DNA of 32,000 bases from assembly GCA_001761425.1 (NCBI GenBank), contig CP012986.1, forward strand, positions 750,001 to 782,000, in the 5' to 3' direction. Source of the stretch: Candidatus Saccharimonadota bacterium (lineage in GTDB: Archaea; Nanohalarchaeota; Nanosalinia; Nanosalinales; Nanosalinaceae). Made by a program: the position numbers and the translations under genes. The notes under the pieces are model-generated. The model searched no databases, was not told the DNA's origin, and saw only the letters and a list, made by a program, of their open reading frames with translations. Positions 1 to 32,000 of the stretch are shown here, piece after piece; positions within the stretch are counted from its first letter, which is position 1, and the number at the start of each line of letters is the position of its first letter.

Positions 1-1107
1 GAACTGGCAAAAGAACTGATGAAGTACGAGACAGTTTCACCAATCGAAAACCCGGATGCATTCCAGTTCCTGAAAGGAGTACTGGAGGACGAGGGAATAA
101 ACGCAGAGATCAGGGAGATAAACGGCGTCTACAACCTTGTAGCAGAGACCGGAGATCCTGAAGCAGAAGAATCAGTCTGTCTCAACGGCCACATGGACGT
201 AGTGGAACCAGAGGGAGAATGGAGCATCACAGAACCGTTTGAACCCGTAGAGGAAAACGGAAAGCTCTACGGCAGGGGAGCAGCCGATATGAAAGGTGCG
301 CTAGCCGCCCAGACCAAGGCCTTCATCGATCTACACCGCGACAGCGAGTTCAACGGCCGGGCAGTACTGATGGCAGTAGGAGACGAAGAGATCGGAGGAT
401 TCGACGGCTCCAAGGTACTGGCAAACGAATACAGCGAAAAAGGAAAGGGCTTCGACCATGTGATAGTCGGAGAACCAACAGACCTGGACTTACAGGTCGG
501 AACAAGAGGCCTGTTCTGGGCAAACGTCTACCTGAAAGGAGAATCTGTTCATGCGACAAGGCCTCACCTCGCAGAGACGAATACAATGGAAAAACTGCCT
601 GAAGCCCTGAAAAGACTGGGGAACCTGGAGATGAGCTTTGAAAACGATGGCCCTCTGCCTGATCCTTCCTCAGAGGTTACGATAGTCGAGTCAACCGATA
701 CCTACAACAGTATCCCTGCCGAGGTCAAGATAGGCATGGATTTAAGGTATCTTCCAGGACAGAAAGTTGATGAAGTAGTCGAAGATATAGAAAACAGTCT
801 TGAAGGCCTTGAAGTCGATGTCGAAGTTGAAGTTGAACAGGATCACGGCGGAGACTTCAAATTAGAGGATGAAAAGTTCAGAAACACTGCTTTCAATGTT
901 CTAATAGAGGTCAGAGGTGAAGAACCGGAGCAGATTACTTCTGGAGGTGCCTCAGATGGGCGTTTCTTCTCGAACAATGGAACACCGTTCATAGAGCTGG
1001 GTGTCAACCAGGAATCAGTCCACGGCGAAAACGAGTACTGTACAGTAGATAACCTGAAGAAACTGAGAAAGGCCTACTTCGATATCAGTAAAAGAATGGC
1101 GGGGTAA
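1..1107 (+). CDS. M20-family metallopeptidase (ArgE/DapE-like deacylase); 5' end probably lies upstream of the window
   Basis: ORF 19..1107. The frame is open back to base 1 (ELAKEL precedes the first Met). Motifs GHMDVV, GRGAADMKG and GDEEIGG are typical of the acetylornithine deacetylase / succinyl-DAP desuccinylase clan. Confidence 0.8.
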   Translation, partial: ELAKELMKYETVSPIENPDAFQFLKGVLEDEGINAEIREINGVYNLVAETGDPEAEESVCLNGHMDVVEPEGEWSITEPFEPVEENGKLYGRGAADMKGALAAQTKAFIDLHRDSEFNGRAVLMAVGDEEIGGFDGSKVLANEYSEKGKGFDHVIVGEPTDLDLQVGTRGLFWANVYLKGESVHATRPHLAETNTMEKLPEALKRLGNLEMSFENDGPLPDPSSEVTIVESTDTYNSIPAEVKIGMDLRYLPGQKVDEVVEDIENSLEGLEVDVEVEVEQDHGGDFKLEDEKFRNTAFNVLIEVRGEEPEQITSGGASDGRFFSNNGTPFIELGVNQESVHGENEYCTVDNLKKLRKAYFDISKRMAG

Positions 1108-1134
1108 AAAATTTGTCTATCTCAGGCCTCTAGC

Positions 1135-1141
1135 TTTTTTT
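1135..1141 (+). terminator. oligo-T (T7) tract downstream of the M20 peptidase gene; archaeal-type terminator candidate
   Basis: A T7 run lies 28 nt after the TAA stop and is preceded by AGGCCT at 1124-1129. Archaeal RNAP terminates at oligo-T tracts. Confidence 0.45.
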
Positions 1142-1205
1142 GCTTTCTGTTTAAAAAGTTTCGCGGATATCTTCTTGTTATAAAACGAGGGAGGTTTTTG
1201 GATTT

Positions 1206-2345
1206 ATGAAATTTTCAGATTTGACTATTTCGGAAAGTACAGTTTCTAGACTTGAGGAAAACGGTATTACAGAGCCTACAGAGGTTCAGGAAAAGGCCAT
1301 TCCAGAGGTTTTGAACGGGAAGGATCTTCTTGTGGAATCGGAGACAGGTTCAGGGAAGACTCTTGCGTTTTCACTGCCTATGATCGAAAATCTTGACCAT
1401 GAAAGCGGTGAGACAGAGGCCCTGGTACTTTCACCGACGCGTGAGCTGGCTAAACAGATCACCGCGGAGATAGAGATGGCTTCGGACAGTATCGATGCTG
1501 TCACGATTTATGGAGGCGTTGATTACGAGCCTCAGATCCAGGGTGCGAAGGAAGCGAATATAATCGTAGGTACGCCGGGAAGAGTCCTTGATCTGTTACA
1601 GCAGGGAAAGATTGATGTCTCGGATGTCGAATACTTCGTTCTTGACGAGGCAGACAGGATGCTGGACATGGGTTTCCAGGACGAACTGGAAGCCATCATT
1701 GACTTCCTGCCTGGGAAAAGAAAAAATCTACTGTTCGGAGCTACTATCCCGAGAGCACTGAAGAGAATGTGTGACAAATACAGTATAGATCCGGAGATCA
1801 TCCGTATCGAGCCAGGAGAACATACCGCAGAGCTTGAAGAGGCCTATATCAACGTCAAAAACAATAACAAGCTTTCCTACCTCTACACCTTCCTGAAAAA
1901 GAAAGATAGAGACCTGGCTATCGTCTTCTGCCAGACCAAGAACACGACACGCTGGTTAGCGGACAAACTGAGAAAAAACGGTATCAATGCACAGGAGATG
2001 AACGGCGACATGAGCCAGAACCAGAGAGAACAGACTCTGGAAAAATTCGAGAACTCAGGTACATCCCAGGATTCATCCAGCGAAGAGATAAAAGTCATCG
2101 TCGCAACAGACGTCGCAGCACGAGGAATCGACGTAGACGATGTAACACACGTCTTCAACTACGACGTACCTGACACAGCAGACACGTACACCCATAGAAT
2201 CGGAAGAGCCGGACGCCAGGGAAGAGAAGGAGAAGCAATCACACTCCTCGAGCCAGAAGACCACCAGAAGTTCAGGAAACTGAAACAGGAACATTCCGTA
2301 CCCAGGATCGACGAAAAACCAGACCTCCTGGACGCAAAAGTATAG
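1206..2345 (+). CDS. DEAD-box ATP-dependent RNA helicase
   Basis: Motif I ETGSGKT, Ia PTRELA, II VLDEAD, III GAT (variant of SAT), VI HRIGRAGRQG. GGAGG lies about 12 nt upstream of the ATG. Confidence 0.93.
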   Translation: MKFSDLTISESTVSRLEENGITEPTEVQEKAIPEVLNGKDLLVESETGSGKTLAFSLPMIENLDHESGETEALVLSPTRELAKQITAEIEMASDSIDAVTIYGGVDYEPQIQGAKEANIIVGTPGRVLDLLQQGKIDVSDVEYFVLDEADRMLDMGFQDELEAIIDFLPGKRKNLLFGATIPRALKRMCDKYSIDPEIIRIEPGEHTAELEEAYINVKNNNKLSYLYTFLKKKDRDLAIVFCQTKNTTRWLADKLRKNGINAQEMNGDMSQNQREQTLEKFENSGTSQDSSSEEIKVIVATDVAARGIDVDDVTHVFNYDVPDTADTYTHRIGRAGRQGREGEAITLLEPEDHQKFRKLKQEHSVPRIDEKPDLLDAKV

Positions 2346-2369
2346 CTAACAGCATAATTCCTTCCTTAT

Positions 2370-2681
2370 TCAAAGGCCTGAAAAATCTTCGAAACCTGCT
2401 ACAAACTCCACTGAAGGCCTGAAATCCTGTTTTCTGCTGTCCTCAAGCACAAAGCTCAGCGAGTAATCTGAACTATCTCCGGAGAACTCGGTGATCACTT
2501 CCAGATAGTTATCGACTTCGCCAGGGTCACTCTCGTGGATCTCCATGATATTTTCCCTCTTGAACTGATAGCCTTTCTCCTCGAGAGTTCTCAAGGCCTT
2601 TTTGTGGAACTCGTCACTTCTGTAGCTTTCCGCCAGGTCGTTTTCAAAGGTATCTGCCAGAATGTAGATATCAGTGTTCAC
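2370..2681 (-). CDS. hypothetical small acidic protein (103 aa) ending in GFEDFSGL
   Basis: ORF with the acidic composition typical of this window. Convergent with the helicase gene. No recognisable domain. Confidence 0.5.
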   Translation of the reverse strand: MNTDIYILADTFENDLAESYRSDEFHKKALRTLEEKGYQFKRENIMEIHESDPGEVDNYLEVITEFSGDSSDYSLSFVLEDSRKQDFRPSVEFVAGFEDFSGL

Positions 2682-2815
2682 GGTGATTTCAGCTCCAGAT
2701 TTGTTTTAGCAGCTCTAAAGAGGCCCTTCATAACTGTCAGTGAATCCTGGGTAAAAGCTGATACTGCGGTCATTATCAACTTTCTGTAGGACAGATCAAG
2801 CACTGGACTCATAGC

Positions 2816-3634
2816 TCAACCCTGTGCCGGAGAGTAAAGTGCCACTGAAGGCCTGTAACCGGGTTTTTCTTTCTCCTCTTTGGGAGAAGGCTTCCACCAG
2901 AAATCTATATCAGGATTTAAATCCGCTTCAAGGCCTGAGAACTGTTCTCTGATTTCCTGTTCGGAACCAGGCTCCGAGACCATCTCCAAGTAGGCCTCAT
3001 CCTTCAGAAATTTCTCTATGCCTCCGTAGAAGCTTTCTCCACCCACAACGTCGAAAACATTGTTAGTATAAACAGCGTCCGCCCCAGAAAGATTTTGTTC
3101 TCTGAAATCTCCGATGACCTGGTTGTCAGGTCTTTCCGTGTTGAAACCGATTTCGTCTATAACACCTGGATAAAAATCCTTCCAGGCAAAACCTATCTCC
3201 GAAAAATCCGGGATCTCGTCAAAACCTGTCTCAGGCCTTCCTGCGTACTCTCTATGTTTTTCAAGAACTTCTCCAGGCACTTTTCCATCCTCTACGAAGT
3301 TGGGGATCCCGGTTCCTGGATCGTCGATGCCTAAAAATTCTTTCAGTTCATCAGTGCTTTTCCCTGGCCCAGGCCTTGAAAGGTAATCTCCCGCAAAATT
3401 CTGGAGGTAAGATGTCCTGGGATTGACTTCTACAGTCGTGACCTCTGCCTCAGGATACCTGTCCTTTAGCCACCAGCCGACCAGGTCAGAGCCTACAGTA
3501 ACGATATGTGCATCCTCCGGTTCAAGGCCTTCCCCCTCAAATCTTTCAGCCACTGCCTCAAAATAAGGCAGATGCACATTCCCTGAAGGATAAGCCAGTT
3601 GATAGACATCATTCCCCCACTCCATTCTTACCAC
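2816..3634 (-). CDS. hypothetical protein, possibly a Rossmann-fold (SAM-methyltransferase / aminopropyltransferase-like) protein
   Basis: 272-aa ORF. IVTVGSDLVGWW ... EVTTVEVNP ... ADAVYTNNVFD loosely resembles class I MTase motifs I, II and IV. GTG start at 3634 or ATG at 3625. AATATATT TATA-like box at 3661-3668. Confidence 0.6.
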   Translation of the reverse strand: MVRMEWGNDVYQLAYPSGNVHLPYFEAVAERFEGEGLEPEDAHIVTVGSDLVGWWLKDRYPEAEVTTVEVNPRTSYLQNFAGDYLSRPGPGKSTDELKEFLGIDDPGTGIPNFVEDGKVPGEVLEKHREYAGRPETGFDEIPDFSEIGFAWKDFYPGVIDEIGFNTERPDNQVIGDFREQNLSGADAVYTNNVFDVVGGESFYGGIEKFLKDEAYLEMVSEPGSEQEIREQFSGLEADLNPDIDFWWKPSPKEEKEKPGYRPSVALYSPAQG

Positions 3635-3785
3635 TTAATTTGTTATGACAGTTAAACAACAATATATTTGTTTTGGTGTATAAGGCCTTTTCTGGTTAAG
3701 AAGTTGGCTAGAAAAGTTTCGGAAGTACTTTCTTTGGCTGTATGTTTTAGAAACGATCACATTAAATGTTTGAACGTGTGGTTGG

Positions 3786-4922
3786 ATGGAGTTTCGAGAA
3801 CTGGATAATCTTTTGCTCTATGAATTTTTGAAGAACTTTGCTCTTTCTCTGATAGGGGTTTTCATCCCTGTTTATATTGTTTCGCAGGGCTTTGGGTTGC
3901 TTCCTGCTGCTCTTTTCATAGTTATCTCAGGCCTCACGGGAACGGTCCTTTCTTATCCTGTTTCCAGGTTGATAGCGAGAATTGGTTTCAAGCATAGTTT
4001 AGCTGCGTCCTATCTTTTCCTTATTCCTGGTCTTGTAGTTATAAGATGGTTTGAGCTTTCTCTTGCGGTTATCGTTGCGTCTTCTTTGCTGTATAATGTT
4101 GGAAGGTTGCTGCATAATATCAGTATGAACTCGGAGTTTGCCGTGGATTCAGACGGAGATAGGAGAGCAAGTGATTCAGGTAAGATGTTGAGTTTGCCAA
4201 GTATCTCCAGAATCATAGCTCCTCTGACAGGAGGATTAATCTTCGCAGGATTAGGTTTCGGCGAATTAATGGCTGTGACAATTTTCATCTTGTTTCTCTC
4301 TGTAATTCCTTTAATTCGTTCCAGAGATCACAGAGACGCTCTGGATTATGATTTCGGAGAACTTCTGAACAAGGAAATCAAGAAAACTATACCGCTATTC
4401 ACTGCTAGGGGTATTCAGGGGGCTACAGCAGTAAGTATTTTCGGACTCTTTGTCTACATGGTAATCGGAGGCTCAGTGGATGTAGGAGGAGCAAGAGCTC
4501 TGGATAGCCTAGGATTTGTTCTGACAGGATTGCTTGTAGGACATCTCTCATCTAAAATTGACAAAGATAAATTCGTACTAGTAGGATGTTCAGGTGCAGC
4601 CTTCATGTATCTACTGAGAGGTTTCCTGGTATCACCTCTCCAGGTTTTCCTGGTCTCATTTGTAAGCGGAATTTTCTTTCAGGTATACCACGTCCCGGTC
4701 TTCTCAAGTTTCGCTGACGAAGCAGAAAGAACCGAAATCCTGGAATTCTACACTCTCAAAAGAATTTTCTCATCTCTCGGAAACATTCTCGCTGTAACGA
4801 CACTAGTCCTGTTCTTCTTTTTATACGATCTCAGAACAGGTTTCATAGCCAGCTTCACACTTGGAAGTATAGCAACGCTCCTAATGGCGGTAATTTACCG
4901 ATCAGAAAAAGAACTGAATTAG
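3786..4922 (+). CDS. MFS-type membrane transporter
   Basis: 378 aa with about 10-12 hydrophobic spans. SRLIARIGFKHSL resembles MFS motif A between TM2 and TM3. Confidence 0.7.
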   Translation: MEFRELDNLLLYEFLKNFALSLIGVFIPVYIVSQGFGLLPAALFIVISGLTGTVLSYPVSRLIARIGFKHSLAASYLFLIPGLVVIRWFELSLAVIVASSLLYNVGRLLHNISMNSEFAVDSDGDRRASDSGKMLSLPSISRIIAPLTGGLIFAGLGFGELMAVTIFILFLSVIPLIRSRDHRDALDYDFGELLNKEIKKTIPLFTARGIQGATAVSIFGLFVYMVIGGSVDVGGARALDSLGFVLTGLLVGHLSSKIDKDKFVLVGCSGAAFMYLLRGFLVSPLQVFLVSFVSGIFFQVYHVPVFSSFADEAERTEILEFYTLKRIFSSLGNILAVTTLVLFFFLYDLRTGFIASFTLGSIATLLMAVIYRSEKELN

Positions 4923-5001
4923 TCCAACAAAATCTTCTTCAACCCCAGAGACGAGGTTGAAAGACGTAAATAGGGCCTTGAAGAAGTAAAGAAGAACTAC
5001 G

Positions 5002-6480: not shown

Positions 6481-6781
6481 TCGTAAAACACCTTGTGTTC
6501 TTCTATATCAAGCAAATCTGTGTTTCGAATCATGTTTAATACCTCTATAGAATGTGAAAGGCCTGAGAAATGTTTTGAAGGTTTTGAAAGAAATACCCTG
6601 CTCGCTTGAGCTATGGTTTTTAGAAGATGCTTTGTGTCTATGATTCAGGAGGGACGCAGGATTCTGTGAAAATTTCTTCTTGAGCAGTTTTTCCCTGTTG
6701 AGAAAGCTGCGGAATACATACACCTTTCATTGTGTAGAGTTTTTTAGAGGCCTGATTTTTTATATTCGCTGGTTGAGGCCT

Positions 6782-7552: not shown

Positions 7553-7630
7553 ACTTCTGTTTTTCTGCCGTATTTTTTAGAATCTCACCTCTCCTTTTCT
7601 GAACGGATATACCTGAGGACACAGATTGAG

Positions 7631-7639
7631 TTTTTATAT
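7631..7639 (+). promoter_or_regulatory. TATA-box-like element (TTTTTATAT) upstream of the 7662 ORF
   Basis: Centred about 27 nt upstream of the GTG at 7662. This fits an archaeal TATA box driving a leaderless transcript. Confidence 0.4.
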
Positions 7640-7661
7640 GTTTGTATAGGGTGGTTACAAC

Positions 7662-8778: not shown

Positions 8779-8854
8779 TACTCATACTCCTATTTATAAC
8801 TTAAGGGTAACAACACTGGAGATCTTTTTCTTGATAGAAAATCCCGGGAAAATT

Positions 8855-9196: not shown

Positions 9197-9241
9197 GGTT
9201 TCAAGTCAACCTCCCCGATATTCATCAATTTTTCCTTCTTC

Positions 9242-9997: not shown

Positions 9998-10036
9998 GTT
10001 TGTTACTTTCTCATGACAACGTAAAAGGTTTTTGGT

Positions 10037-13384: not shown

Positions 13385-16233
13385 TCTTCGTCCCCTAGAA
13401 TCCCGTAGAGTGGGTCTCCTTCTTCAGGTATGTAGCTTTCATAAAATACGAATCCTGCGATCCCCAGTACTACAAGGAATATCGCGATCGGGATGATCGG
13501 CAGGCCTCCATCACTGTTTTCCTGGTTGGAACCTGTTCCAGAGTTTTCTGATCCGCCTGAATCAGGGTCATCGGATTCTCCTGTACCTCCTTCATTGCTT
13601 GGAGGATCATCCTGTTCCTGGTCATCGTCCGAACCATCGTCTGAGTTGTCCTGGTTCGAGACCCAGTCCAGTCTGTTCTGTCCTTCCTGGTAAAGATTTT
13701 TCGCAGTCATGTAGTTACCTTCACTCCAGTTCTGTTCAATGTCTTCTACAGAGTCCGAGACCTCACTGAGTGTGCGTGTAAGATTGCTTCCTCTTACAGG
13801 CCTGAGATCCTCGATCCGGCTCTCAAGCTCCGAAGTTTTTGCAGAGTAATTCTCCACAGTAGAAGCGTTAACACTGATAACAGAGCTTACAAGGCCTTCA
13901 GATGTGTTACCGGATATATTTACCTGGCCTTCCTCCGTTGTTATGTTTTCAAATTCAAGGCCTACAGTTTCCGTATCTCCTCCACTGATGTTCAGATCTG
14001 AAACGTTCAGGCCTGTACTGAACTCTGAAGAACTGGCCTCAACGTTTTGAACTTCTATGTTGCCATTGTTCTGGATATCAAGTTCCTGCACTCTGTCGGT
14101 TTCTGACGGGACTGTTCCCAGGTCCAGGTTTGAAGCCGTTACAAGGCCTTTCTCATCGTTTTGTTCAAATGTTGTTTCCAGACTGGTGTTGAAAACTAGG
14201 CTTGAGGACGAGTTATCTGGTTCGAACTCTATGTTTCCTGTGTAGTTTCCTGCTTCGTCAACAGTGTAGTTGATCTGTACCTGGAGTTCGTCTTCAACTG
14301 TGTAGAGATCTCTTACTTCTACGAGGTCTGAAATGTTTCCGGTTACTTCTGTGGTCAGGTTTGTCGCGTTTCCGTCCTCTGCGTTGTTCTGGAAGATCAC
14401 TTCCTCCGTGTAGTTCCCTCTGCTGTCTGCTGTGACGTTGACCCATTTCCCGGTTAAACTGCAGACGTCTCCTGCGCTGAACTGGCAGGATCTTACATCG
14501 ATTCCGAGATCAACAGTCCTGTTATAGCCGGTCTCAGCGTCGGTAAAGTTCACATGTCCTTCAACGGCCTCGAAAGCACTCAGATTGACCGCGACAGTGA
14601 TATTTTCAACCGGATCGGAGATACTCACTGATTCGCTTATATTAACCTGATCGCCAAGGCCTTCAGAGACGTTGGTGTTCAGGGTTATCTCGCTTCCGAC
14701 AAGATTTTCAACAGTCATGTTGAACTCCTCGTATTCTTCCTCTTCTTTCTCAAAAACAGTATCGTTTACAGCAAAGGTCTGCTCAGAACTCGAGACCGAG
14801 AAGCCGGAATCTGCTTCCCTGACCTCTCCGTAGATATCCGAGGCCATTATGTCCAGGTTCCATCTGCCTGTGGAGGCCTGTTCAGGGATCATTATCTCTT
14901 CTTCAAAGGCCATTTCCTGGTCGTCAAAGGTCAGGTTGGAAAGGTTGTAGCTTCCGAACGTATTTGCTTCTGAGTCTGTCACGTTGACTTCAACTGTTTC
15001 GATCCTGGATTCACTCCATGGAGTGAGAGATTTCGGTTTCACAGTCTGGATGGAGAGATCGTAGGCCTGACCCTGTACAGTGCTTCTTGTCCCTGTATGG
15101 ATGACTTCCAGAGGAGTGTAGTCTACAGGGAAGACATCTACGTGATTTCTGTCGTTTCTGGTGACGTTGAACTTTATTGTGATTTCTTTATCGTAGGCTG
15201 ACGTGTTTATATCAGGTATTTCGATCTCGGAGGTGTAGAGGCCTTCCTGGTTCTGGTCCATTGTTTTCTCAAAGTAATTTTCAAGTTCGTTGGATGAACG
15301 GTTTCTCCTGTAGCCTGAGACCGTTACGTTATCGGCTTCTGCGCCTGTGACATTGTAAACTGCTTCAAATGTGGCTCCTGGTTCACATTCTGCTGCCTGA
15401 ATATCCTGTCCGCTTTCAACAGTTTCACATCCCTGGATATTCCTCAAGTCTTGAACCTTGCCTTTAAGCTCTCTTACAGTCTCTATGAATGTGGTAGTAG
15501 CTCCGTAAGAGTTTTCATAATTTTTCGAACGGTTCTGTGCGATTATACTCATCATGTACTCGCTTTCATAGCTTTCAGGGACGGGAACAGAGGCTCTGTA
15601 GAGTTTTTCTGTCTCGTTGTAGGTGAAATCTACTCCGTGCTGAGACTCCGAACTGTTCTTGAAGAATGCGTCGACATCGCTGTCGTTCACGTTCTCGGAA
15701 CTACCTCTCATAGTAACGTTAACTGACATGTTTACCTCATTGCCCGGTACCACCTTGGAAGGAATTTCATCCTGAAGTTCGACCGTATAGTTGCCAATTT
15801 TGACTGAAGCAGTATCGTTCTGCCATCCACCGGAGTCTGTTCCGGTATTTGGATTTCTGTTTCCCTGTGCCTCGAAGAGAATCTCGGCTTTGTTACCGGA
15901 GATGCCGTGTTTGGACTGATCGGCCTCGAACTCCGCATACCAGTAAGCTCCGCTGAAATGCGTCATGTTCTCAGAGGAACCATCAGATTTGTTGTAAGTA
16001 TAGATTACATCAGAAGCATCAGTTATATCCGACGGAAGAATAGGATCGCCCTGTTCATCCGTCAACTCGACGAAAATGATGGAGTTCTGACCCTCTGAAA
16101 AGAATATAGAGCTGCCGTCAGTATTCGTATGATCTGAAACAGTTAAATTCCATTCCGCAGCAGCAGGCGAAACAAGAACAGTCAAAAACACTAGAGTAAG
16201 CAACAGTTTTTTACCAGAACCAATTCCGTTCAT
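13381..16233 (-). CDS. large cell-surface glycoprotein (S-layer/adhesin candidate), 950 aa
   Basis: Sec-type signal peptide (KKLLLTLVFLTVLVSPAAAEW). About 45 N-x-S/T sequons by hand count. Acidic Gly/Ser/Asp-rich linker (SNQDNSDDGSDDDQEQDD...SGTGSNQENSDGG). Single C-terminal TM (LPIIPIAIFLVVLGIAGFVFY) and a short acidic tail. Confidence 0.8.
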   Translation of the reverse strand: MNGIGSGKKLLLTLVFLTVLVSPAAAEWNLTVSDHTNTDGSSIFFSEGQNSIIFVELTDEQGDPILPSDITDASDVIYTYNKSDGSSENMTHFSGAYWYAEFEADQSKHGISGNKAEILFEAQGNRNPNTGTDSGGWQNDTASVKIGNYTVELQDEIPSKVVPGNEVNMSVNVTMRGSSENVNDSDVDAFFKNSSESQHGVDFTYNETEKLYRASVPVPESYESEYMMSIIAQNRSKNYENSYGATTTFIETVRELKGKVQDLRNIQGCETVESGQDIQAAECEPGATFEAVYNVTGAEADNVTVSGYRRNRSSNELENYFEKTMDQNQEGLYTSEIEIPDINTSAYDKEITIKFNVTRNDRNHVDVFPVDYTPLEVIHTGTRSTVQGQAYDLSIQTVKPKSLTPWSESRIETVEVNVTDSEANTFGSYNLSNLTFDDQEMAFEEEIMIPEQASTGRWNLDIMASDIYGEVREADSGFSVSSSEQTFAVNDTVFEKEEEEYEEFNMTVENLVGSEITLNTNVSEGLGDQVNISESVSISDPVENITVAVNLSAFEAVEGHVNFTDAETGYNRTVDLGIDVRSCQFSAGDVCSLTGKWVNVTADSRGNYTEEVIFQNNAEDGNATNLTTEVTGNISDLVEVRDLYTVEDELQVQINYTVDEAGNYTGNIEFEPDNSSSSLVFNTSLETTFEQNDEKGLVTASNLDLGTVPSETDRVQELDIQNNGNIEVQNVEASSSEFSTGLNVSDLNISGGDTETVGLEFENITTEEGQVNISGNTSEGLVSSVISVNASTVENYSAKTSELESRIEDLRPVRGSNLTRTLSEVSDSVEDIEQNWSEGNYMTAKNLYQEGQNRLDWVSNQDNSDDGSDDDQEQDDPPSNEGGTGESDDPDSGGSENSGTGSNQENSDGGLPIIPIAIFLVVLGIAGFVFYESYIPEEGDPLYGILGDEE

Positions 16234-18701: not shown

Positions 18702-19514
18702 TTATTTTAAACTTCCGGGAAATTCCTGTTTGAAGGCCTCGGCTACTTCGTTAAGTTGTCTTATCTCGAGTTGGACAGGCCTTTTTTCGGAGTGAGGTAG
18801 CTGGTCTCTGAATTTTTTTGCTTCGTCTTTGGATATGTTGAGGATGTGTCTTGCGTCTACGAAGGCGTTTCTGGTTTTTTTTCTCTTGTTGGTGAACAAG
18901 GCCTTTGTAACGTGGAAAAGTGTTTCAGGTTTTTTTACACCGTGTCTGTCCTGGTTCGGGTAGAGTTTCAGGATGGATGTTGTGACTTCTGGTTCCGGAT
19001 GGTAGCTTCGTGAGGAAACGTCTCTCAGTTTAACAGGTAGAAAGTAGTAGTTTGTTTTTATTGTTATTTCCGTGTACTGGTTATCTCCTGGCTCTGACAG
19101 GACTTTCTCCGCCAGTTCTTTCTGGACGATAACCGAGCTCTGGATCTGTTTTTTCCCCAGTCTTTCGATAGTGTCTGTCGCGATGTGGAAAGGAAGATTG
19201 GAGACACATCTTGTCACTTCATCCGGTATATCGTACTCGTTGAAGTCTTCGTTGAGAACTTCGACATTGGAGGCCTCGAATTTTTTCTTTAGATGAGTGT
19301 AGAGCTTGGTATCTGTTTCAAGAGCATAGACTTTCTCTGCTTTCTCCGCCAGTTTTTCAGTTATAACTCCTGTGCCAGCTCCGATCTCCAGGACCACTTC
19401 GTCCTCTATTTCTCCGGCCTGGACTAAGGCCTTGATGGTTGGCTCCGAGTTAAGAAAGTTCTGGCCTTTTACAGGCTTTATTCCGAGCTCTTCCAGTTTT
19501 TCCCGGGTTTTCAT
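18702..19514 (-). CDS. ksgA: 16S/18S rRNA dimethyladenosine transferase (KsgA/Dim1/RsmA)
   Basis: GQNFL, LEIGAGTGVIT and SNLPFHI motifs. The ATG overlaps the upstream stop (ATGA). Confidence 0.92.
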   Translation of the reverse strand: MKTREKLEELGIKPVKGQNFLNSEPTIKALVQAGEIEDEVVLEIGAGTGVITEKLAEKAEKVYALETDTKLYTHLKKKFEASNVEVLNEDFNEYDIPDEVTRCVSNLPFHIATDTIERLGKKQIQSSVIVQKELAEKVLSEPGDNQYTEITIKTNYYFLPVKLRDVSSRSYHPEPEVTTSILKLYPNQDRHGVKKPETLFHVTKALFTNKRKKTRNAFVDARHILNISKDEAKKFRDQLPHSEKRPVQLEIRQLNEVAEAFKQEFPGSLK

Positions 19515-20047: not shown

Positions 20048-20082
20048 AATATCACATTATTTGTAGTTTTATCTTTTTCAGT

Positions 20083-20113
20083 ACCAAGGCCTTCAGAATA
20101 AGGAGGCCTCGGT
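20083..20113. repeat. inverted repeat built on two AGGCCT cores (ACCAAGGCCT-11 nt-AGGCCTCGGT)
   Basis: 10-nt arms with 9/10 complementarity, in the 114-nt spacer between rpoF and the DUF655 gene. Confidence 0.6.
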
Positions 20114-20161
20114 GAAGAAAATGAGGGAATCCTTATGTTAAAAGTCTTCCGGGAAAGGCCT

Positions 20162-25156: not shown

Positions 25157-25498
25157 TTATCCACCGATGTTCCAGTACATGTAGATTGACATTGCGGATG
25201 CTGCGCCGATGAATAGCATTCCGAATCCGAATGTGGAGGCGTCTGGCAGAGGATTTCCCTGGTATGTCCAGTATGTGAATCCGAGGCCTGCTATCATTAA
25301 TGCTGCCATGAACGGGTTTTTGAAGAAGGCCAGGAGGTTCCAGAGGCTTTCCCAGCCTATCATTGAGAAGAAGAACCACGATAGTATGAACAGGACGATG
25401 AGGCCTGATTCTATCTGGGTGAGTTCGTAGGCCTGGTAGGCCAGGTATCCTGCGAGGCCTCCTACTGCTGATAGGATGAGAGCGGTTTTCGGGTTCAT
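25157..25498 (-). CDS. small integral membrane protein (113 aa, about 4 TM), hypothetical
   Basis: Four hydrophobic spans rich in aromatic residues. The competing ORF 25122..25379 is rejected on composition. Confidence 0.6.
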   Translation of the reverse strand: MNPKTALILSAVGGLAGYLAYQAYELTQIESGLIVLFILSWFFFSMIGWESLWNLLAFFKNPFMAALMIAGLGFTYWTYQGNPLPDASTFGFGMLFIGAASAMSIYMYWNIGG

Positions 25499-27431: not shown

Positions 27432-28250
27432 ATGTCTAGAAGAAGCCATCCTGCTCTTAGTAGTTCTAAAAGTGTTTCCAGGGAAGATGCAGAGATACTG
27501 AAGAACTCGAGGAGGAGAGGTATTATCAAGGCCTTGAGCAGTGATACAGGTATGCTTGATTCTCTGGTAGGCCTTTTCCTGGAACAGGAAAATGATTCTG
27601 AGCCTGTAGGTAAGAGAGATTTATCGGATCAGGTCGCTGCATGGGAACAGGGAGTTCCCCTGGATGAGATATCTTACAAAAAATTGAAGAGTGTCTACGC
27701 TACCATACATCAGCATCATCTGGATATCCTTGATGAAGAGGATTTGATAAACCGTTATCCTCATGAAGGGCTTGTAGAACCTCTACCCGGTGTAGATGAT
27801 TATACGGAACTGATCGAGGACAGGCCTCACAAGGAAAGTGCTTTTCCGGGAGCGGATGACTCTCGGAACACAGATTCTGTTTTGACCACAGATGAGGCCT
27901 ATGATGCCCTCAGTAATGGGCGGCGCAGGCAAACCCTTAGCTATATGGGTAATAGCAGGGACGTAAAATTTTCTGTCGGGGAATTATCAGAGCACTTGGC
28001 CAGGTTAGAACAACCTGATGGAGATTCTATAACGTCTGGAGAACGGAAAGCAGCTTACGTAGGCCTTGCGCAGTGTCACCTGCCGATGCTGGATGAAACA
28101 GAGGTAATAGATTACGATGATAACAGGAAAAATGTAAGGAGAGGAAGACACTTCGAAGATGTAACAAGTTATCTGCCGGCGGACTCAGAGTCTATCTCAG
28201 ACCCTGGAGTGAGGAAAGCCAAGGCCTTGGGAGTTTTACCTCTTTTCTAG
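27432..28250 (+). CDS. tandem winged-helix (ArsR-like; haloarchaeal DUF7344-like) DNA-binding protein
   Basis: Two copies of the pattern [L.N.RRR....L]-[DL...VAAWE/LARLE]-[K..Y..L.Q.HLP.LD....I.Y]. Copy 1 is at about aa 20-110, copy 2 at about aa 155-235. TATA-like TATTTATTAA lies about 30 nt upstream. Confidence 0.65.
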   Translation: MSRRSHPALSSSKSVSREDAEILKNSRRRGIIKALSSDTGMLDSLVGLFLEQENDSEPVGKRDLSDQVAAWEQGVPLDEISYKKLKSVYATIHQHHLDILDEEDLINRYPHEGLVEPLPGVDDYTELIEDRPHKESAFPGADDSRNTDSVLTTDEAYDALSNGRRRQTLSYMGNSRDVKFSVGELSEHLARLEQPDGDSITSGERKAAYVGLAQCHLPMLDETEVIDYDDNRKNVRRGRHFEDVTSYLPADSESISDPGVRKAKALGVLPLF

Positions 28251-29137
28251 TCCAGTATCTGATCTACGAACTCTTCCCTGTCGAATTCTTCAATATCGCT
28301 GTAGTCCTGTCCCGTTCCAATGTATGCGACAGGTTTCCCGCTTCTTTCACTGATCGAGATAATGGCTCCTCCGCTCTCATCGACATCCAGTTTGGTGACG
28401 ATAACTGCGTCAAACATTCCTTCGTAGGCCTCTGCCTGTTCAAGCACGTCATTTCCGGCCAGGGCGTCTACTACCAGGAAACTGATATCTGGTTCGTTGA
28501 CCCGGACCATTTTCTCCAGTTCTCCCATCAGGTTATCATCACTGTGGCTTCTACCTGCTGTATCAATTATAGCGATCTTATCCTCGTTCTGTGCATGTTC
28601 CACGGCGTCGTATGCGACTGCTGCCGGGTCAGATTCGTATTCATGGCTGATAACTTTCGCACCGATGTTACTGCCGTGTTCCTCAAGCTGTTCTATCGAA
28701 GCAGCTCTGAAAGTGTCTCCAGCTCCGAGAACTACTTCCATACCCATGTCTTCAAACATGTCTCCGAGTTTACCGGCTGTAGTGGTCTTACCGGAGCCGT
28801 TGAAACCCATGAGAAACATTACAGGAGGTTCAGAGGCCTCATCCAGTGCATGTGCCAGGTCAAAGCTGTCATCAAGCAGTTCAAGCAGTACTTCCCGGAC
28901 AGCTTCTTCAACTTTTTCCTCAGCTTTTCCTCTTTTTACTTCACGGCCTCTCAAGGTCTCAAGAAGCTCTTCTTCTATGGCCTCGGCAGCTTCAAGCGAG
29001 ACATTGTTTTTCAAAAGCCTTAGCCGGAGATTTTCGAGTAAAGGGTTCAGGGTTTCCTCATCAAGTTCTTCCTCGGCTATAGCTGATTTTACATCGTCCG
29101 AAAAATCCTTTACCGAGTCCTTGAAGTTATTGAGAAT
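28247..29137 (-). CDS. ftsY: signal recognition particle receptor FtsY; probable non-canonical ATT start
   Basis: NG domain (GFNGSGKTTTAGKL, DTFRAA, DTAGR, TKLDVDESGGA, GTGQ). The FtsY-like N-terminal helix region continues upstream of the ORF-track TTG (29014) to an ATT at 29135-29137. That ATT is preceded by GGTGA with a 6-nt spacer and an in-frame TGA. Confidence 0.85.
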   Translation of the reverse strand: MLNNFKDSVKDFSDDVKSAIAEEELDEETLNPLLENLRLRLLKNNVSLEAAEAIEEELLETLRGREVKRGKAEEKVEEAVREVLLELLDDSFDLAHALDEASEPPVMFLMGFNGSGKTTTAGKLGDMFEDMGMEVVLGAGDTFRAASIEQLEEHGSNIGAKVISHEYESDPAAVAYDAVEHAQNEDKIAIIDTAGRSHSDDNLMGELEKMVRVNEPDISFLVVDALAGNDVLEQAEAYEGMFDAVIVTKLDVDESGGAIISISERSGKPVAYIGTGQDYSDIEEFDREEFVDQILD

Positions 29138-29143
29138 TGTTGG

Positions 29144-29148
29144 TCACC
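29144..29148 (-). promoter_or_regulatory. Shine-Dalgarno-like GGTGA upstream of the ftsY ATT codon
   Basis: The same GGTGA motif precedes the L21e ATG. The spacer to the ATT is 6 nt. Confidence 0.45.
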
Positions 29149-29200
29149 CTGTGAGGCCTTTTTGTAGAAGAAAGAGGTTTGATAGAGAGGCCTTCTTTTT

Positions 29201-29614
29201 TTATTCTTCTTTTTCTTCCATTGCCTGTTGCTGGAGCTGTTGCTGTAGGCCTTGCATTTCTTCCTGTAGTTCCTGTAGTTGCGTCTGTAGTTCTTCTTTT
29301 GTTGCTTTGAGTTCTTCTTTCTGCATTGTGAGGATGTCTGTTGCTTCTTCTGTTTCTCTTTTTTCGAAGGTTTCTCCTCCGATGTTTGTGACTACTTTGG
29401 TTGTTTCTTTGATTTCTGCGAGTGCGTATGTTCCTGCTCCGATTGGTGCGAGGATTTCTTTTCCTTCTTCGATGTCTGCGAGGTCTTTTACTGCTTCTGA
29501 GGATTCCTGTACTTTTTCTATGCTCTGGTCGACTTGTTCTACGTATTCCTGGATTTGCTGCATTTGTTTTTGGATTTGCTGGTATTGCTGCATCTTCTGC
29601 TGGTCTTGTGGCAT
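29201..29614 (-). CDS. pfdA: prefoldin alpha subunit
   Basis: Coiled coil - beta hairpins (ILAPIGAGTYALAEIKETTKVVTNIGGETFEKRETEEA) - coiled coil. The pfdA-ftsY adjacency is conserved in archaea. Confidence 0.88.
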   Translation of the reverse strand: MPQDQQKMQQYQQIQKQMQQIQEYVEQVDQSIEKVQESSEAVKDLADIEEGKEILAPIGAGTYALAEIKETTKVVTNIGGETFEKRETEEATDILTMQKEELKATKEELQTQLQELQEEMQGLQQQLQQQAMEEKEE

Positions 29615-29616
29615 TT

Positions 29617-29793
29617 CTAGATCTCCTCTGTGTTTTTGATCTCTACTTTGGATCTGCTGATGTTTTGTTCGCTTGTCAGCTGTGAGTAGAGTTTGTCCTG
29701 TGCGTGTTTTTCTGATTCTGCTTCGATCTCTCTGGTGAATGGCTGTTCTTCGATCCCGAGTTTTACTCTGCCGGAGAACTTGAATTCTGTCAT
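29617..29793 (-). CDS. rplX: 50S ribosomal protein LX (L18Ae/eL20 family), 58 aa; absent from the supplied ORF track
   Basis: My translation is MTEFKFSGRVKLGIEEQPFTREIEAESEKHAQDKLYSQLTSEQNISRSKVEIKNTEEI*. It matches the LX pattern (F.v.G.....G.Q.F.kEi.A......A.....YS..GS.H). The position immediately upstream of pfdA is conserved. Confidence 0.75.
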   Translation of the reverse strand: MTEFKFSGRVKLGIEEQPFTREIEAESEKHAQDKLYSQLTSEQNISRSKVEIKNTEEI

Positions 29794-29812
29794 ATTATAG
29801 TCGGAAGTTACG

Positions 29813-29823
29813 AAATTTTTAAA
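29813..29823 (-). promoter_or_regulatory. TATA box candidate (TTTAAAAATTT on the minus strand) for rplX-pfdA-ftsY
   Basis: Lies 20-30 nt upstream of the rplX ATG at 29793, in the 42-nt spacer after the ATPase gene. Confidence 0.45.
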
Positions 29824-29835
29824 CCCTGCGTAATG

Positions 29836-31872
29836 TCAATCGTATTTTTCGACGATTTCCATAGGATCTTCATTGTTCTGCGCCATCTCGACTACCATGT
29901 CTTCATCGCTGTAGTACTGTGCGATGATCTTTCCTACCTGTTCTACATCTGTTATGTCGTGGTCCACGAGCCATTGCAGGACTTCCTGTTTTTTTTCTAC
30001 GTTGTCGAATATTTCTCCACGGCTCATTCCTGTATGGAGTTTTAGTTTCTCAACGATCTCTGTGGATTCTCTCTCCTTGTTGATCTCGTCTTCTTCCGAG
30101 TCCCAAGCGTAGATGACGTTGGCTCCAAGCTCCGTCTCTCCTCCTCGTTTGTAACCTGATTTGGTGACTTCTGCTACCTGGAATACTCTTCTGAAGTTTC
30201 TTCTGCGTTCACGGAACATGACCACGTTAACGTCTACTGATTTAACCATCTGCTCCGCTACATCGATAGGCGGATTTAAAAGACGCTGAACTGTCTGTTC
30301 TGCTGTATCAGCGTGGATTGTGGAGTATACTGAGTGTCCTGTGTGCATCGCCTCGAAGAGGACTTCTGCCTGGCGCTTTTTACGGATCTCTCCGACCAGG
30401 ATACGGTCAGGACGCATACGAAGCGAGTTAACAAGCAGATCAAGCATCGAAATCTCTCCTTTACCTTCAGGGTTTGCCTCTCTCGTCGTAAGAGGCACCC
30501 AGTGAAGGAACTCCGGAAGCTGTACTTCTCTTGTATCCTCGATGGATATGATCCTCTGACTGGGAGGAATGAAAGGCATCAAGATGTTCAGAAGGCTTGT
30601 CTTACCAGCTCCTGTACCTCCTGATACAAGTACTGAAAGCTCGTACTGCAGACAGAGCCAGAGGAACGCAGCGACTTCTTTGTTAATAGTACCGTTTTTG
30701 ATAAAATCTATGACTGTCCACGGATCACGGGCGAACTTACGGATCGTGATAGTGTTACCGTGGGTAGAAATCGGCTGAATGGTGGAGTTAACACGATCTC
30801 CACTGGGAAGATGTGCGTCCAGAAGCGGATCCAGGGAGGAAATGTTTTTACCGACACGACGGGCAATTTCCGACGAGTAATTGTAGATCTCTTCTTCGTT
30901 CTCAAAAGTAAGGTTTGACTTCAGCCAGCCGTGCTCCTGGTGATAGACCCACGTCGGCTCATCCGCAGAGTTGATAACAAGTTCCTCAAGCCTGGGATCA
31001 TTCAAAAGGATCTCGACATCACCAAGCCCGACCATGTCATGAATCAAATTCCCGATAAGAATCTCCTTCGCACGCTCATCGGAATCAGGCAAAAGATCAT
31101 CCAACTGCTTCTCAACCTCCTCACTGAACTTTCTCTTAACAGTCTCAATCTCATCAGAATCCGTAAACTCCTCTCTCGTCAACTCCACATTCTCAATAAC
31201 ACGCTTCCTAATATTATCCACAAAGGCCTCCGTACCCAGACTGATCTGAGGCCTGTTAATAAAGTAAATCGGGACGTACTCATCGTCCTTATCTCCAATC
31301 ATGATTTTAGCTGGAACCTGATCCGCATCAACCTTGTAACTCTGATTTACCTCATCCAGAGTGCTTTCCCCGTACTCGACCTCCTCATGGTCTTCTTCAG
31401 GGATATCCTCATGATCATCCTCGACCTCGATCTCGTTCTTACCGCCTTCAATCTCAACCTCCTCAGGAATATCTTCCCCCTCAAGGCCTTCTTCCTCTTC
31501 ATCTTCTGAGGCCTCTTCGTCTTCTTCAGTTCCCTCTGACATCGAACCTGTTTCTATTATAGATGAACCCGAACCTTCATCGGAGCCTTCCTCATCCTCT
31601 TCATCTTCGTCCTCATAGTCCTCTGACTCAACGAGCTGGAAATCATCTCCAGAACCATCTCCAGAATCATCTCCGGAGTTTTCTCCATCAGATTCCTGGA
31701 TTTCATCGTCTTCAGAGGCCTGTTCTATCGCTGCCAGGTTCTTCTCGATCTCGTCCTCTATGTCCATGGAACCATCTTCTGAGGCCTCTTTTTCACCGCC
31801 TGAAGCTCCCTGATCCTCTGCTTGTTCGTCCATCATACCGCTTTCTATCAGAGAATCGTCTTCTTCACTCAT
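29836..31872 (-). CDS. type II/IV secretion-family ATPase (archaeal FlaI/ArlI-PilB-like) with a polyacidic N-terminal extension
   Basis: Walker A SGGTGAGKTS, Asp box IISIEDTREV, Walker B RPDRILVGEIR, His box TGHSVYSTIHA, and the GNTITIRKF motif typical of archaeal FlaI-like ATPases. The first ~170 aa are D/E/G/S low complexity. Confidence 0.9.
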   Translation of the reverse strand: MSEEDDSLIESGMMDEQAEDQGASGGEKEASEDGSMDIEDEIEKNLAAIEQASEDDEIQESDGENSGDDSGDGSGDDFQLVESEDYEDEDEEDEEGSDEGSGSSIIETGSMSEGTEEDEEASEDEEEEGLEGEDIPEEVEIEGGKNEIEVEDDHEDIPEEDHEEVEYGESTLDEVNQSYKVDADQVPAKIMIGDKDDEYVPIYFINRPQISLGTEAFVDNIRKRVIENVELTREEFTDSDEIETVKRKFSEEVEKQLDDLLPDSDERAKEILIGNLIHDMVGLGDVEILLNDPRLEELVINSADEPTWVYHQEHGWLKSNLTFENEEEIYNYSSEIARRVGKNISSLDPLLDAHLPSGDRVNSTIQPISTHGNTITIRKFARDPWTVIDFIKNGTINKEVAAFLWLCLQYELSVLVSGGTGAGKTSLLNILMPFIPPSQRIISIEDTREVQLPEFLHWVPLTTREANPEGKGEISMLDLLVNSLRMRPDRILVGEIRKKRQAEVLFEAMHTGHSVYSTIHADTAEQTVQRLLNPPIDVAEQMVKSVDVNVVMFRERRRNFRRVFQVAEVTKSGYKRGGETELGANVIYAWDSEEDEINKERESTEIVEKLKLHTGMSRGEIFDNVEKKQEVLQWLVDHDITDVEQVGKIIAQYYSDEDMVVEMAQNNEDPMEIVEKYD

Positions 31873-32000
31873 CGTCTATCTTACCTCTGAGAAACTCTTT
31901 CATAGTTTTACGGTCCTTGTGGCTTTCCTCGAACTCGAGCAAGGCCTTGTAATCCGGGTCCTCAAGTTCCTCGATCCTGAACTCCGCAGCTTTCTCTATA
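31865..32000 (-). CDS. 3' end of an unidentified acidic protein gene (partial; continues beyond the window)
   Basis: The open frame reads ...IEKAAEFRIEELEDPDYKALLEFEESHKDRKTMKEFLRGKIDDE*. Its TGA overlaps the ATPase start region (ATGAGTGA), suggesting coupling. Confidence 0.45.
   Translation of the reverse strand, partial: IEKAAEFRIEELEDPDYKALLEFEESHKDRKTMKEFLRGKIDDE

Follow-up and report, generated by a model that had tools for sequence, protein, structure and literature searches.

The palindromic hexamer AGGCCT is strongly over-represented throughout a 32-kb stretch of the chromosome of Ca. Nanopetramus SG9 (hereafter the window, positions 1..32000, corresponding to ~756.4–788.4 kb of the SG9 contig), and we conclude that it is a real archaeal element resembling the highly iterated palindromes (HIPs) of cyanobacteria, the mechanism proposed for it below being one that we infer. 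The SG9 genome, of Atacama halite origin, is a single contig of 1,125,078 bp, and the paper that describes it mentions neither the motif nor palindromes, methylation or restriction (bioRxiv 10.1101/029934). Four proteins encoded in the window match AOV95071, AOV95081, AOV95088 and AOV95100 of SG9 at every residue. The window belongs to the chromosome of a cellular DPANN symbiont (Nanohaloarchaeota) and not to a virus. Our analysis covered ~42 kb of the 1.1-Mb genome, namely the 32-kb window and 9.9 kb beyond its end; because this flank carries 43 sites at 4.36 per kb, equal to the density of the window, the enrichment is probably genome-wide, and extrapolation would give a total of ~4,800 AGGCCT sites in SG9.

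The hexamer occurs exactly 137 times in 32 kb, or ~1 per 234 bp, which is the number that the first-pass annotation of this DNA had estimated, with its example positions all in place. In 100 dinucleotide-preserving shuffles the count averaged 7.07 (sd 2.56, maximum 14) and never reached 137, and an order-1 Markov model predicts 7.4, both close to the ~8 previously expected; the enrichment is therefore ~18-fold. AGGCCT is the commonest hexamer of the window, whereas the runner-up among palindromic hexamers is present in 18 copies. As had also been noticed, about two-thirds of the GGCC tetramers (137 of 205, 67%) sit inside AGGCCT, and its relatives are ordinary, all nine classes of one-mismatch neighbours lying at 0.7–2.1 times expectation. 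A maximal-order (order-4) Markov model, which the first-pass annotation had proposed as a further check, returns an expectation of 127; we rejected this figure as circular and unusable as a test, since the AGGCC and GGCCT 5-mers on which it is built derive almost entirely from the motif itself.

Enrichment is evident in coding and non-coding DNA alike. Within the 36 open reading frames (ORFs) treated as genes there are 116 sites, compared to 18.8 ± 3.9 (maximum 30) in 300 synonymous-codon shuffles that preserve both the protein and its codon usage. The excess thus persists under the dinucleotide-preserving and the codon- and protein-preserving shuffles by which the first-pass annotation had suggested it be judged, and its view that no single peptide motif is responsible is upheld. 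All three codon phases contribute, as predicted, and both strands carry the motif: 20 sites lie in phase 0 (AGG CCT, Arg-Pro, as at 559..564 on the plus strand), 37 in phase 1 (xAG GCC Txx, [K/E/Q]-Ala-[F/S/Y/L...], as at 317..322, plus strand) and 59 in phase 2 (xxA GGC CTx, x-Gly-Leu, as at 507..512, plus strand). Spacers had been thought to match genes in density; they are in fact denser (~6.6 versus ~4.0 sites per kb). Composition predicts 0.44 sites for non-coding DNA, where 22 are present (~50-fold), while one-off neighbours there are at expectation (7 versus 9.4). One intergenic spacer (20048..20161) packs three sites, at 20087, 20104 and 20156, into 114 bp; at least one of the sites counted as spacer, that at 17245, actually belongs to a pyrG gene disrupted by a frameshift. 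Scanning the window for Rfam families and tRNAs gave no matches, and structured RNAs therefore do not explain the spacer sites.

The unit of enrichment is the bare hexamer. Flanking positions, which had already been described as variable, contribute at most 0.28 bit, at –1, where there is a weak purine preference; A is avoided at +6, and the palindromic 8-mer AAGGCCTT covers just 29 of the sites. Spacing is Poisson-like (coefficient of variation 1.06), close pairs are not in excess (19 gaps of ≤50 bp versus 26.4 ± 4.1 expected), and gaps of 22–30 bp number 7 against 4.7 expected (P = 0.19). Given uninformative flanks and Poisson-like spacing, each hexamer is placed independently of its neighbours. 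AGGCCT is accordingly not a repetitive extragenic palindromic (REP) or miniature inverted-repeat transposable element (MITE), nor one half of a terminator pair, nor an oriented signal of the Chi or FtsK-orienting polar sequence (KOPS) type; being its own reverse complement, it is incapable of carrying orientation. Overall, the enrichment is a property of the DNA: peptide, codon-usage and repeat explanations all fail, and something directional, be it selection or biased repair, must be at work.

The sites start at 317, 507, 559, 804, 1070, 1124, 1840, 2374, 2415, 2594, 2849, 2931, 2992, 3233, 3371, 3525, 3683, 3929, 5082, 5294, 5516, 5757, 6028, 6148, 6559, 6748, 6776, 6819, 7155, 7179, 7449, 7476, 7732, 8019, 8165, 8471, 8541, 8894, 9072, 9751, 9847, 9891, 10196, 10278, 10578, 11294, 11349, 11662, 11778, 11930, 11996, 12687, 12807, 13227, 13323, 13502, 13798, 13892, 13958, 14009, 14144, 14657, 14874, 15063, 15239, 16247, 16402, 16490, 16595, 16745, 16960, 17191, 17245, 17571, 17760, 17998, 18315, 18327, 18453, 18734, 18777, 18899, 19271, 19427, 19904, 20087, 20104, 20156, 20643, 20938, 21142, 21688, 21810, 22198, 22242, 22347, 22560, 22838, 23075, 23454, 23496, 23691, 24602, 24639, 24810, 24873, 25087, 25097, 25284, 25401, 25429, 25455, 25759, 25840, 26370, 26514, 26655, 26774, 27323, 27529, 27569, 27822, 27895, 28061, 28222, 28426, 28834, 29154, 29188, 29247, 31224, 31249, 31484, 31509, 31716, 31782 and 31942. 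The longest motif-free stretch (29253..31223; 1,977 bp between sites, P ~0.02 versus random placement) spans a spacer together with coding sequence for the N-terminal half of a FlaI/PilB-like ATPase, an acidic, low-complexity region with few opportunities for the motif.

To express how fully the available positions are used, an opportunity was defined as a place where the encoded peptide permits AGGCCT through synonymous codon choice. Across the window, 116 of 157 such opportunities (74%) are filled. Arg-Pro dipeptides are encoded with the motif in 20 of 22 cases, and x-Gly-Leu tripeptides in which x has an NNA codon in 59 of 70. Phase-1 tripeptides carry it in 37 of 65, a figure that divides into 30 of 41 for [K/E/Q]-Ala-[F/S/Y/C/W] and 7 of 24 for [K/E/Q]-Ala-Leu, where rare TTR leucine codons are needed. 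Almost all genes of the window are saturated in this sense. The clearest exception, and the only gene far from saturation, encodes a major facilitator superfamily (MFS) transporter (3786..4922, plus strand), in which a single AGGCCT fills one of five opportunities and three AGGATT codon pairs occur; its GC content (42.2%) is also the lowest of any gene in the window, and the gene may be a recent acquisition whose DNA is still unconverted.

The trait is confined to one clade, as emerged when related genomes were compared in the manner the first-pass annotation had advised. Syntenic loci of relatives were gathered through a Pus10 scan of metagenomes and through SRP54 homologues. Four of these loci are enriched: those of strain L213 (97.7% nucleotide identity to SG9; 87 sites in 21 kb), L081 (SRP54 96% identical to that of SG9; 83 sites in 20.9 kb), L082 (Pus10 85%, GC 41%; 21 sites in 6.3 kb) and L086 (SRP54 85%; 44 sites in 12.1 kb). 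Together with SG9 they carry 3.4–4.4 sites per kb, and the four further clade loci and the additional 9.9 kb of SG9 lie at 12–23 times expectation. In contrast, the motif is not enriched in L087 (SRP54 79%; 3 sites in 21 kb), L212 (78%; 7 sites in 16.5 kb), L088 (77%; 5 sites in 21 kb), L089, which is N. constans (77%; 3 sites in 21 kb), or L083 (Pus10 77%; 3 sites in 4.4 kb, P = 1e-5 versus the SG9 density), and neither is it in the more distant DPANN and haloarchaeal loci. The enriched genomes form a single clade in the SRP54 tree, with the trait present at ≥85% SRP54 identity to SG9 and absent at ≤79%. The sister lineages are unenriched. The trait thus had a single, recent origin, on the branch leading to the Ca. 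Nanopetramus clade. Synonymous opportunities are filled to 65–80% within the clade, three other members falling in the same range, versus 0–7.5% in the outgroups; the corresponding odds ratio of 51 (ln = 3.9) represents an effective bias of about e^4 per site. The outgroups possess no hyper-abundant word of their own, none exceeding ~3-fold over-representation, and an initial lead in L087 (CGGTAT/TACCGG) was dropped on these grounds.

The bias extends to the proteins. Compared to their outgroup orthologues, SG9 proteins contain x-Gly-Leu 2.2–2.5 times more often (31 versus 13 for L087, 29 versus 13 for L088 and 10 versus 4 for L089) and [KEQ]A[FSYCW] ~3 times more often (10 versus 3 and 12 versus 4), whereas the control x-Gly-[IVM] is slightly down (Fisher tests of xGL versus xG[IVM], P = 0.008 and 0.013). 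Derived replacements toward the motif are typified by LGI to LGL, RV to RP and KDS to KAS. Amino-acid usage is thus bent toward Gly-Leu and [K/E/Q]-Ala-[F/S/Y]. Peptides at motif sites did not differ significantly from random peptides in their conservation against the outgroups (P = 0.09 and 0.55).

Comparison of homologous positions indicates how sites come and go. At an overall nucleotide identity of 78.7%, SG9 and L081 share 57 sites, amounting to 57 of 83 in SG9 and 57 of 77 in L081 (69–74%), compared to 28.5% of all hexamers (P = 4e-14), and identity across the six motif bases is 0.89 versus 0.77 in the 30-bp flanks. When a site is not shared, the two sequences differ at ≥3 bases in 43% of cases, versus 18% of all non-identical hexamers. 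In codon alignments restricted to identical peptides, clade members use the motif in 40 of 44, 14 of 15 and 10 of 11 cases, and outgroups in 0 of 8, 2 of 13 and 0 of 2. The outgroup states at motif-equivalent codons include AGGTCT, AGGACT, AGGGCT, AGACCT, CGACCG, GGGCCT, CGGCCT and AGGCCC, among others, so that gains have proceeded from A, G or T at position 4, from A at position 3, from G or C at position 1 and from C, A or G at position 6. It follows from this variety that changes at all positions, transitions and transversions alike, have been driven toward the motif.

The process is still operating, as recent events in SG9 and L213 (2.1% divergence), polarised with L081, demonstrate. Three sites were gained in SG9: at 14009..14014, where L213 has AGCCCT and L081 AACCC-, by a C-to-G transversion at position 3; at 18899..18904, where L213 has GGGCCT and L081 GGGCTT, by a G-to-A change at outer position 1; and at 29247..29252, where both have AGGCCC, by a C-to-T change at outer position 6. 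Two sites retained in SG9 and L081 were lost in L213, at 25429..25434 (now AGGCTT) and 28834..28839 (now AGACCT). From an ancestral pool of 82 one-off and 78 motif sites, and with the average substitution rate taken as neutral, 0.5 gains and 8.5 losses would be expected; the three gains (P = 0.014) and two losses (P = 0.009) correspond to ~6 and ~0.24 times the neutral rates, respectively. The resulting gain/loss bias of ~26 agrees in order of magnitude with equilibrium odds of ~50. The gain excess, the loss deficit and the odds ratio of ~51 all bear out the earlier proposal that selection or directional repair acts at the DNA level.

A sequence-specific force on the DNA itself, rather than on peptides, RNA or a mobile repeat, therefore pushes all accessible positions to the exact hexamer, and the reading that remains is of a factor whose recognition extends over all six bases and which tilts fixation toward AGGCCT from any of its neighbours. 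We give an about even chance to one specific form of this reading, in which AGGCCT is the archaeal counterpart of the HIPs and a clade-specific mark, likely that of a StuI-specificity methyltransferase, biases the accumulation of sites. The agent would be a protein peculiar to the clade that recognises AGGCCT; by analogy with the cyanobacterial HIPs, all of those examined having a matching methyltransferase, it would most likely be a DNA cytosine methyltransferase of StuI specificity, whether orphan or part of a restriction–modification (RM) system. The methylated hexamer would constitute a dense ‘self’ mark. Heteroduplexes or mismatches with the (methylatable) motif on one strand would be resolved in favour of the motif, such that sites accumulate, either through a methyl-directed repair ratchet (Elhai’s ratchet) or through preferential uptake and recombination of marked DNA. 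Each site would then be gained faster and lost more slowly than a neutral one, independently of its neighbours. Insofar as spacing is Poisson-like and saturation is nearly reached without diminishing returns, a site-autonomous drive of this kind fits better than an architectural requirement, although selection may still contribute.

Several observations weigh against this methyltransferase-based drive. Neither the window nor the 9.9-kb flank encodes a DNA methyltransferase or an RM gene, and no nuclease or other protein reading AGGCCT came to light in them; for the window proteins, searches of Pfam, NCBIfam, PADLOC and PDB returned no DNA methyltransferase, RM or defence gene. An MTS-domain protein (16276-16803) was considered as the motif methyltransferase and rejected, as it is a HemK/Mtq2-type small methylase that also occurs in non-enriched outgroups. 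No deamination hot-spot signature is seen, core C-to-T changes making up ~36% of single-step differences, near chance, and the Dam/MutH system of E. coli illustrates that a site need not become enriched just because its methylation directs repair. Selection for protein binding would leave an identical static pattern. The positional ‘conservation’ is also in part trivial, because protein conservation combines with high saturation, and by itself it does not prove that individual sites are needed; the recent gains and losses, at three and two, are small counts.

Self/non-self marking of DNA is nonetheless plausible in this group, in view of the restriction domains of SPEARE proteins and of a methyltransferase exported elsewhere among its members. 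SPEARE proteins, which occur in nanohaloarchaea and number four in SG9, have intracellular restriction-enzyme domains for which a role in degrading incoming DNA has been proposed (Hamm et al. 2019). Export of a methyltransferase to the host appears to take place in another nanohaloarchaeon. An archaeal RM survey (PMC10609329) covers the genome M3_22, with SG9 absent. It is conceivable, though distinctly unlikely in our estimation, that AGGCCT is the first archaeal ‘self-DNA tag’, a dense and probably methylated signal that would separate own or species DNA from imported host DNA, spare self DNA from degradation or favour conspecific uptake and recombination, and spread by molecular drive.

Alternatively, AGGCCT could be a DNA-uptake or recombination signal that accumulates by molecular drive without any need for methylation, like the DNA uptake sequences (DUS) and uptake signal sequences (USS) of bacteria; we consider this unlikely, yet a serious candidate. 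It would account for a clade-specific, ‘dialect’-like motif in all reading frames with a measurable effect on the proteome, and for the excess of gains and deficit of losses. HIP1 of cyanobacteria is now argued to be an uptake sequence, nanohaloarchaea have been proposed to import DNA through SPEARE proteins, and the end of the window and the DNA beyond it carry an archaeal type-IV-pilus-like cluster that includes a T2SSE ATPase and a prepilin peptidase. Set against this are the form of the motif, 6 bp, palindromic and with uninformative flanks, where known uptake signals are asymmetric with 9–12 specified bases; the mere ~18-fold by which such a 6-mer separates self from foreign DNA; close inverted pairs that are no commoner than expected (19 versus 26 gaps of ≤50 bp); a saturation far above the ~1 site per kb of USS and DUS; and the fact that no competence system is known in the phylum. 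The first-pass annotation had found an uptake tag attractive on account of the pilus-type ATPase, but this argument is weak, since an orthologous T2SSE ATPase is present in non-enriched L088. A further possibility, which we judge improbable, is that the hexamer is the binding site of an abundant chromatin, nucleoid or chromosome-organising protein, new or re-specified in the clade, with weak purifying selection on each site. Retention far above background, constraint limited to six bases and a density that is highest in non-coding DNA are in keeping with such a role, and one in nucleoid structure was favoured for HIP1 (Xu et al., PMC5861425). However, spacing is Poisson-like rather than regular, near-complete filling and altered proteins suggest no diminishing returns, which is unexpected for architecture, and ~4,800 sites each requiring s > 1/Ne would be demanding for a small-population symbiont; no candidate protein was found.

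The remaining explanations fare worse on the same data. In its strict form, very-short-patch (VSP) repair would pair an m5C methyltransferase with a Vsr-type endonuclease, T:G-to-C:G correction in the motif context regenerating AGGCCT. A directional DNA-level process is indeed required, both recent losses in L213 are C-to-T or G-to-A changes in the core, and VSP repair in E. coli raises CCWGG and lowers CTWGG. We nevertheless regard VSP repair as highly improbable here: deamination neighbours are not depleted (AGGCTT/AAGCCT 0.79-fold and AGGTCT/AGACCT 0.93-fold, with non-coding one-offs at 7 versus 9.4), and an 18–50-fold enrichment is far above known VSP effects. Outgroup precursors involve every position by transitions and transversions, and the recent C-to-G, position-1 G-to-A and position-6 C-to-T gains are beyond the ability of such repair, so that the feeding of the motif by all kinds of base change argues against T:G-to-C:G correction. 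The VSP component of the methyltransferase hypothesis in the first-pass annotation is hence not borne out; its methyltransferase component is plausible by analogy with the HIPs of cyanobacteria. Trivial causes retain a negligible probability, be they the usage of codons or amino acids, dispersed repeats or mobile elements, or artefacts of assembly, adapters or contamination. Apart from x-Gly-Leu (phase 2) being the commonest context, only a priori possibility speaks for them; the synonymous shuffles, the ~50-fold non-coding excess, the outgroups that encode the same peptides without the motif and the random flanks all oppose them, as does the recurrence of the enrichment in five independent assemblies from different projects (assemblies with the enrichment being the NCBI/JGI SG9, Logan SRR2630167, ENA ERZ27300266 and ERZ1034573, JGI Ga0102942 and GCA_042217615.1). 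An active Type II RM system was excluded as the reason for AGGCCT abundance, because the targets of such a system should be avoided, like CTAG, GCGC, CGCG and TGCA in the same window, whereas AGGCCT is 18-fold enriched. The palindromes under-represented in the window are CTAG (39 versus 118), GCGC and CGCG (17 and 18 versus 46), TGCA (46 versus 88) and TTAA (63 versus 115); avoidance of CTAG is typical of halophilic archaea with an orphan CTAG m4C methyltransferase.

Further features of the window deserve mention in their own right. The FlaI/PilB-type ATPase (T2SSE; 29836-31872, minus strand) has a ~200-residue N-terminal extension rich in Asp and Glu, and its neighbours, seen at positions 1-10000 of locus L211, are a 495-residue protein, a prepilin peptidase homologue, an archaeosortase (EpsH), a DUF460 protein, a Hef-type helicase-nuclease and a HerA-like ATPase. 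Non-enriched L088 has an orthologue of the ATPase; gene calling gave none in the syntenic loci L087, L089 and L212. The FtsY ORF (28247-29200, minus strand) begins at a TTG as listed and encodes 255 residues versus 293–300 in relatives; its frame is open for ~45 codons further upstream, and part of the ‘spacer’ 29015-29200 is probably coding. A two-domain DUF7344 (winged-helix) protein (27432-28250, plus strand; Pfam E-value 1.4e-36) is encoded in SG9 and L213, and its gene is an insertion, being absent from that position in L081, L086 and all outgroups; six of its seven motif opportunities are already filled. The CTP synthase gene pyrG (16800-18370, minus strand) is split into ORFs of 345 and 141 residues by a single-base deletion in a T run (GAC-TTGAC versus GACTTTGAC). 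The close strain L213 (523 residues), L087 and L088 have an unbroken copy, and the SG9 version may be either a real pseudogene or a homopolymer assembly error.

Elsewhere, the prolyl-tRNA synthetase (5002-6480, minus strand) has its best genome matches, among the matches listed, in a Natronomonas metagenome-assembled genome (MAG; 59%) and in Halobacteriales (57%), both Halobacteria and ahead of DPANN, and may have been acquired from the lineage of the host. A small acidic hypothetical protein at 2370-2681 (minus strand) and another at 7662-8066 (plus strand) have a common C-terminal GFEDFSG motif and are probably paralogues. The block 2370-9997 includes six ORFs whose Pfam, NCBIfam and PADLOC matches are sub-threshold only, none of them meaningful. 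The plus strand shows a strong excess of T over A (10,158 versus 6,971) that follows gene orientation, since most genes lie on the minus strand and coding strands are purine-rich. Dense AGGCCT clusters in IMG/VR were tried as a source of viruses of the clade and proved uninformative, those among the matches listed being tandem repeats (L203, L135, L108 and L207) or non-halophilic phages (L164 and L090/L161). In L203 the array at 6700-8430 has a ~73-bp period with a unit containing AGGCCTAGGCCT, on a ‘viral’ contig with eukaryote-like or low-complexity ORFs, and is unrelated to the present finding. The non-halophile viral contigs L164 (IMGVR_UViG_3300031867_007516, 1-10794), L090 and L161 carry dispersed AGGCCT with variable flanks, with 22 sites in 10.8 kb (52% GC) and 13 in 3.6 kb (36% GC); these densities are 5–10 times expectation, but the contigs were selected by a motif-cluster search.

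Cyanobacteria have been known since the 1990s to harbour hyper-abundant palindromes, whose origin and function are still debated, with a repair ratchet, nucleoid structure and an uptake signal all having been advanced. The archaeal case transfers the phenomenon to another domain of life and to a reduced symbiont genome, where it is stronger, near saturation and reshapes proteins. Its main value lies in offering a tractable comparative system for what creates such motifs: given the youth of the trait, gene presence and absence across public MAGs could name the causal enzyme, and if AGGCCT is truly a self-DNA tag, comparison with the unenriched sisters should pinpoint the gene and illuminate the 30-year-old HIP1 problem. 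The biases in codon and dipeptide usage matter for phylogenetics, binning and the detection of horizontal gene transfer in the clade, and AGGCCT provides a compositional marker in hypersaline metagenomes for Nanopetramus-clade DNA and for recently acquired genes within it.

Among the known systems comparable to AGGCCT are those that methylate or repair a palindrome. The same recognition sequence belongs to a StuI-type RM system in Alcanivorax borkumensis SK2, for which AGGCCT-specific RM and cytosine methylation are reported, with 1,674 sites in the genome. That genome measures roughly 3 Mb, so the density there is ~0.5 AGGCCT per kb. A genome normally avoids the targets of its active RM systems or is neutral toward them; the ~18-fold enrichment of AGGCCT here is more in keeping with an orphan or ‘persistent’ methyltransferase than with defence. 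In the Dcm/Vsr system of E. coli, acting at CCWGG, DNA repair likewise skews how often a methylated palindrome occurs, but it handles T:G mismatches only, has small effects and depletes the T-variant; the AGGCCT data show neither depleted neighbours nor gains confined to T-to-C.

Uptake signals provide a second comparison. The DUS and USS of Neisseria and Pasteurellaceae are also over-represented in a clade-specific manner, and their accumulation can be explained by drive rather than by a benefit of each site. Findlay and Redfield in 2009 and Maughan et al. in 2010 reportedly found such motifs inside genes in all frames, distorting peptide composition, and motif-encoded peptides are similarly enriched in the SG9 proteome. 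These signals differ in being 9–12 bp long, asymmetric, present at ~1 per kb, often paired as terminators and recognised by known pilin or competence proteins; AGGCCT has neither an asymmetric core of 9–12 bases nor an excess of close inverted pairs, and as for machinery, the T2SSE ATPase and prepilin peptidase adjoin the window while the ATPase has its orthologue in non-enriched L088 too. In Campylobacter, the methyltransferase CtsM and its motif RAATTY, said by Beauchamp et al. in 2017 to be a 6-bp, partly palindromic and over-represented self mark when methylated, offer a 6-bp parallel, methylated HIP1 acting as a self mark as well. Over-representation of RAATTY is modest and follows AT-richness.

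The closest likeness is to the HIPs. HIP1, the cyanobacterial highly iterated palindrome GCGATCGC, is 15–300-fold over-represented with sites conserved between genomes (Xu et al. 2018; PMC5861425), and other cyanobacteria have alternates, namely GGCGCC in Calothrix PCC 7103, rCCGGy in Oscillatoria PCC 10802, GCsGC in Cyanothece PCC 7822, GGGATCCC in Synechococcus JA strains and CAGGCCTG in Synechococcus PCC 6312; all the hyper-abundant palindromes examined in cyanobacteria, among them HIP1, the alternates GGCGCC, rCCGGy and GCsGC (Elhai 2015; PMC4390886) and CAGGCCTG, co-occur with a methyltransferase of matching specificity. Methylated HIP1 boosts natural transformation >100-fold, and HIP1 abundance correlates with DNA-uptake machinery. 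AGGCCT agrees with this class in being a short GC-rich palindrome, at least 15-fold over-represented in all frames and in non-coding DNA outside any longer repeat, conserved among relatives above background, and lineage-specific in a way that may differ between sister lineages; the cyanobacterial CAGGCCTG even contains an AGGCCT core. A cognate methyltransferase, methylation and a 10–90-kb periodicity are features of HIP1, while AGGCCT is characterised from its occurrence in ~42 kb of SG9. The first-pass annotation knew of no description of such a signal; this does not hold for the class as a whole, as HIP1, GGCGCC, rCCGGy and CAGGCCTG attest, and may hold for Archaea, for which we found no such motif in the full-text literature searched (coverage is incomplete, and this is absence of evidence). 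What is new is therefore not the HIP class itself but a HIP-like motif that is archaeal, found in a DPANN symbiont rather than a cyanobacterium; hexameric, with six specified bases instead of eight; denser, at 1 per 234 bp with synonymous opportunities near saturation; and evolutionarily young, having originated between 79% and 85% SRP54 identity with unenriched sister lineages at hand.

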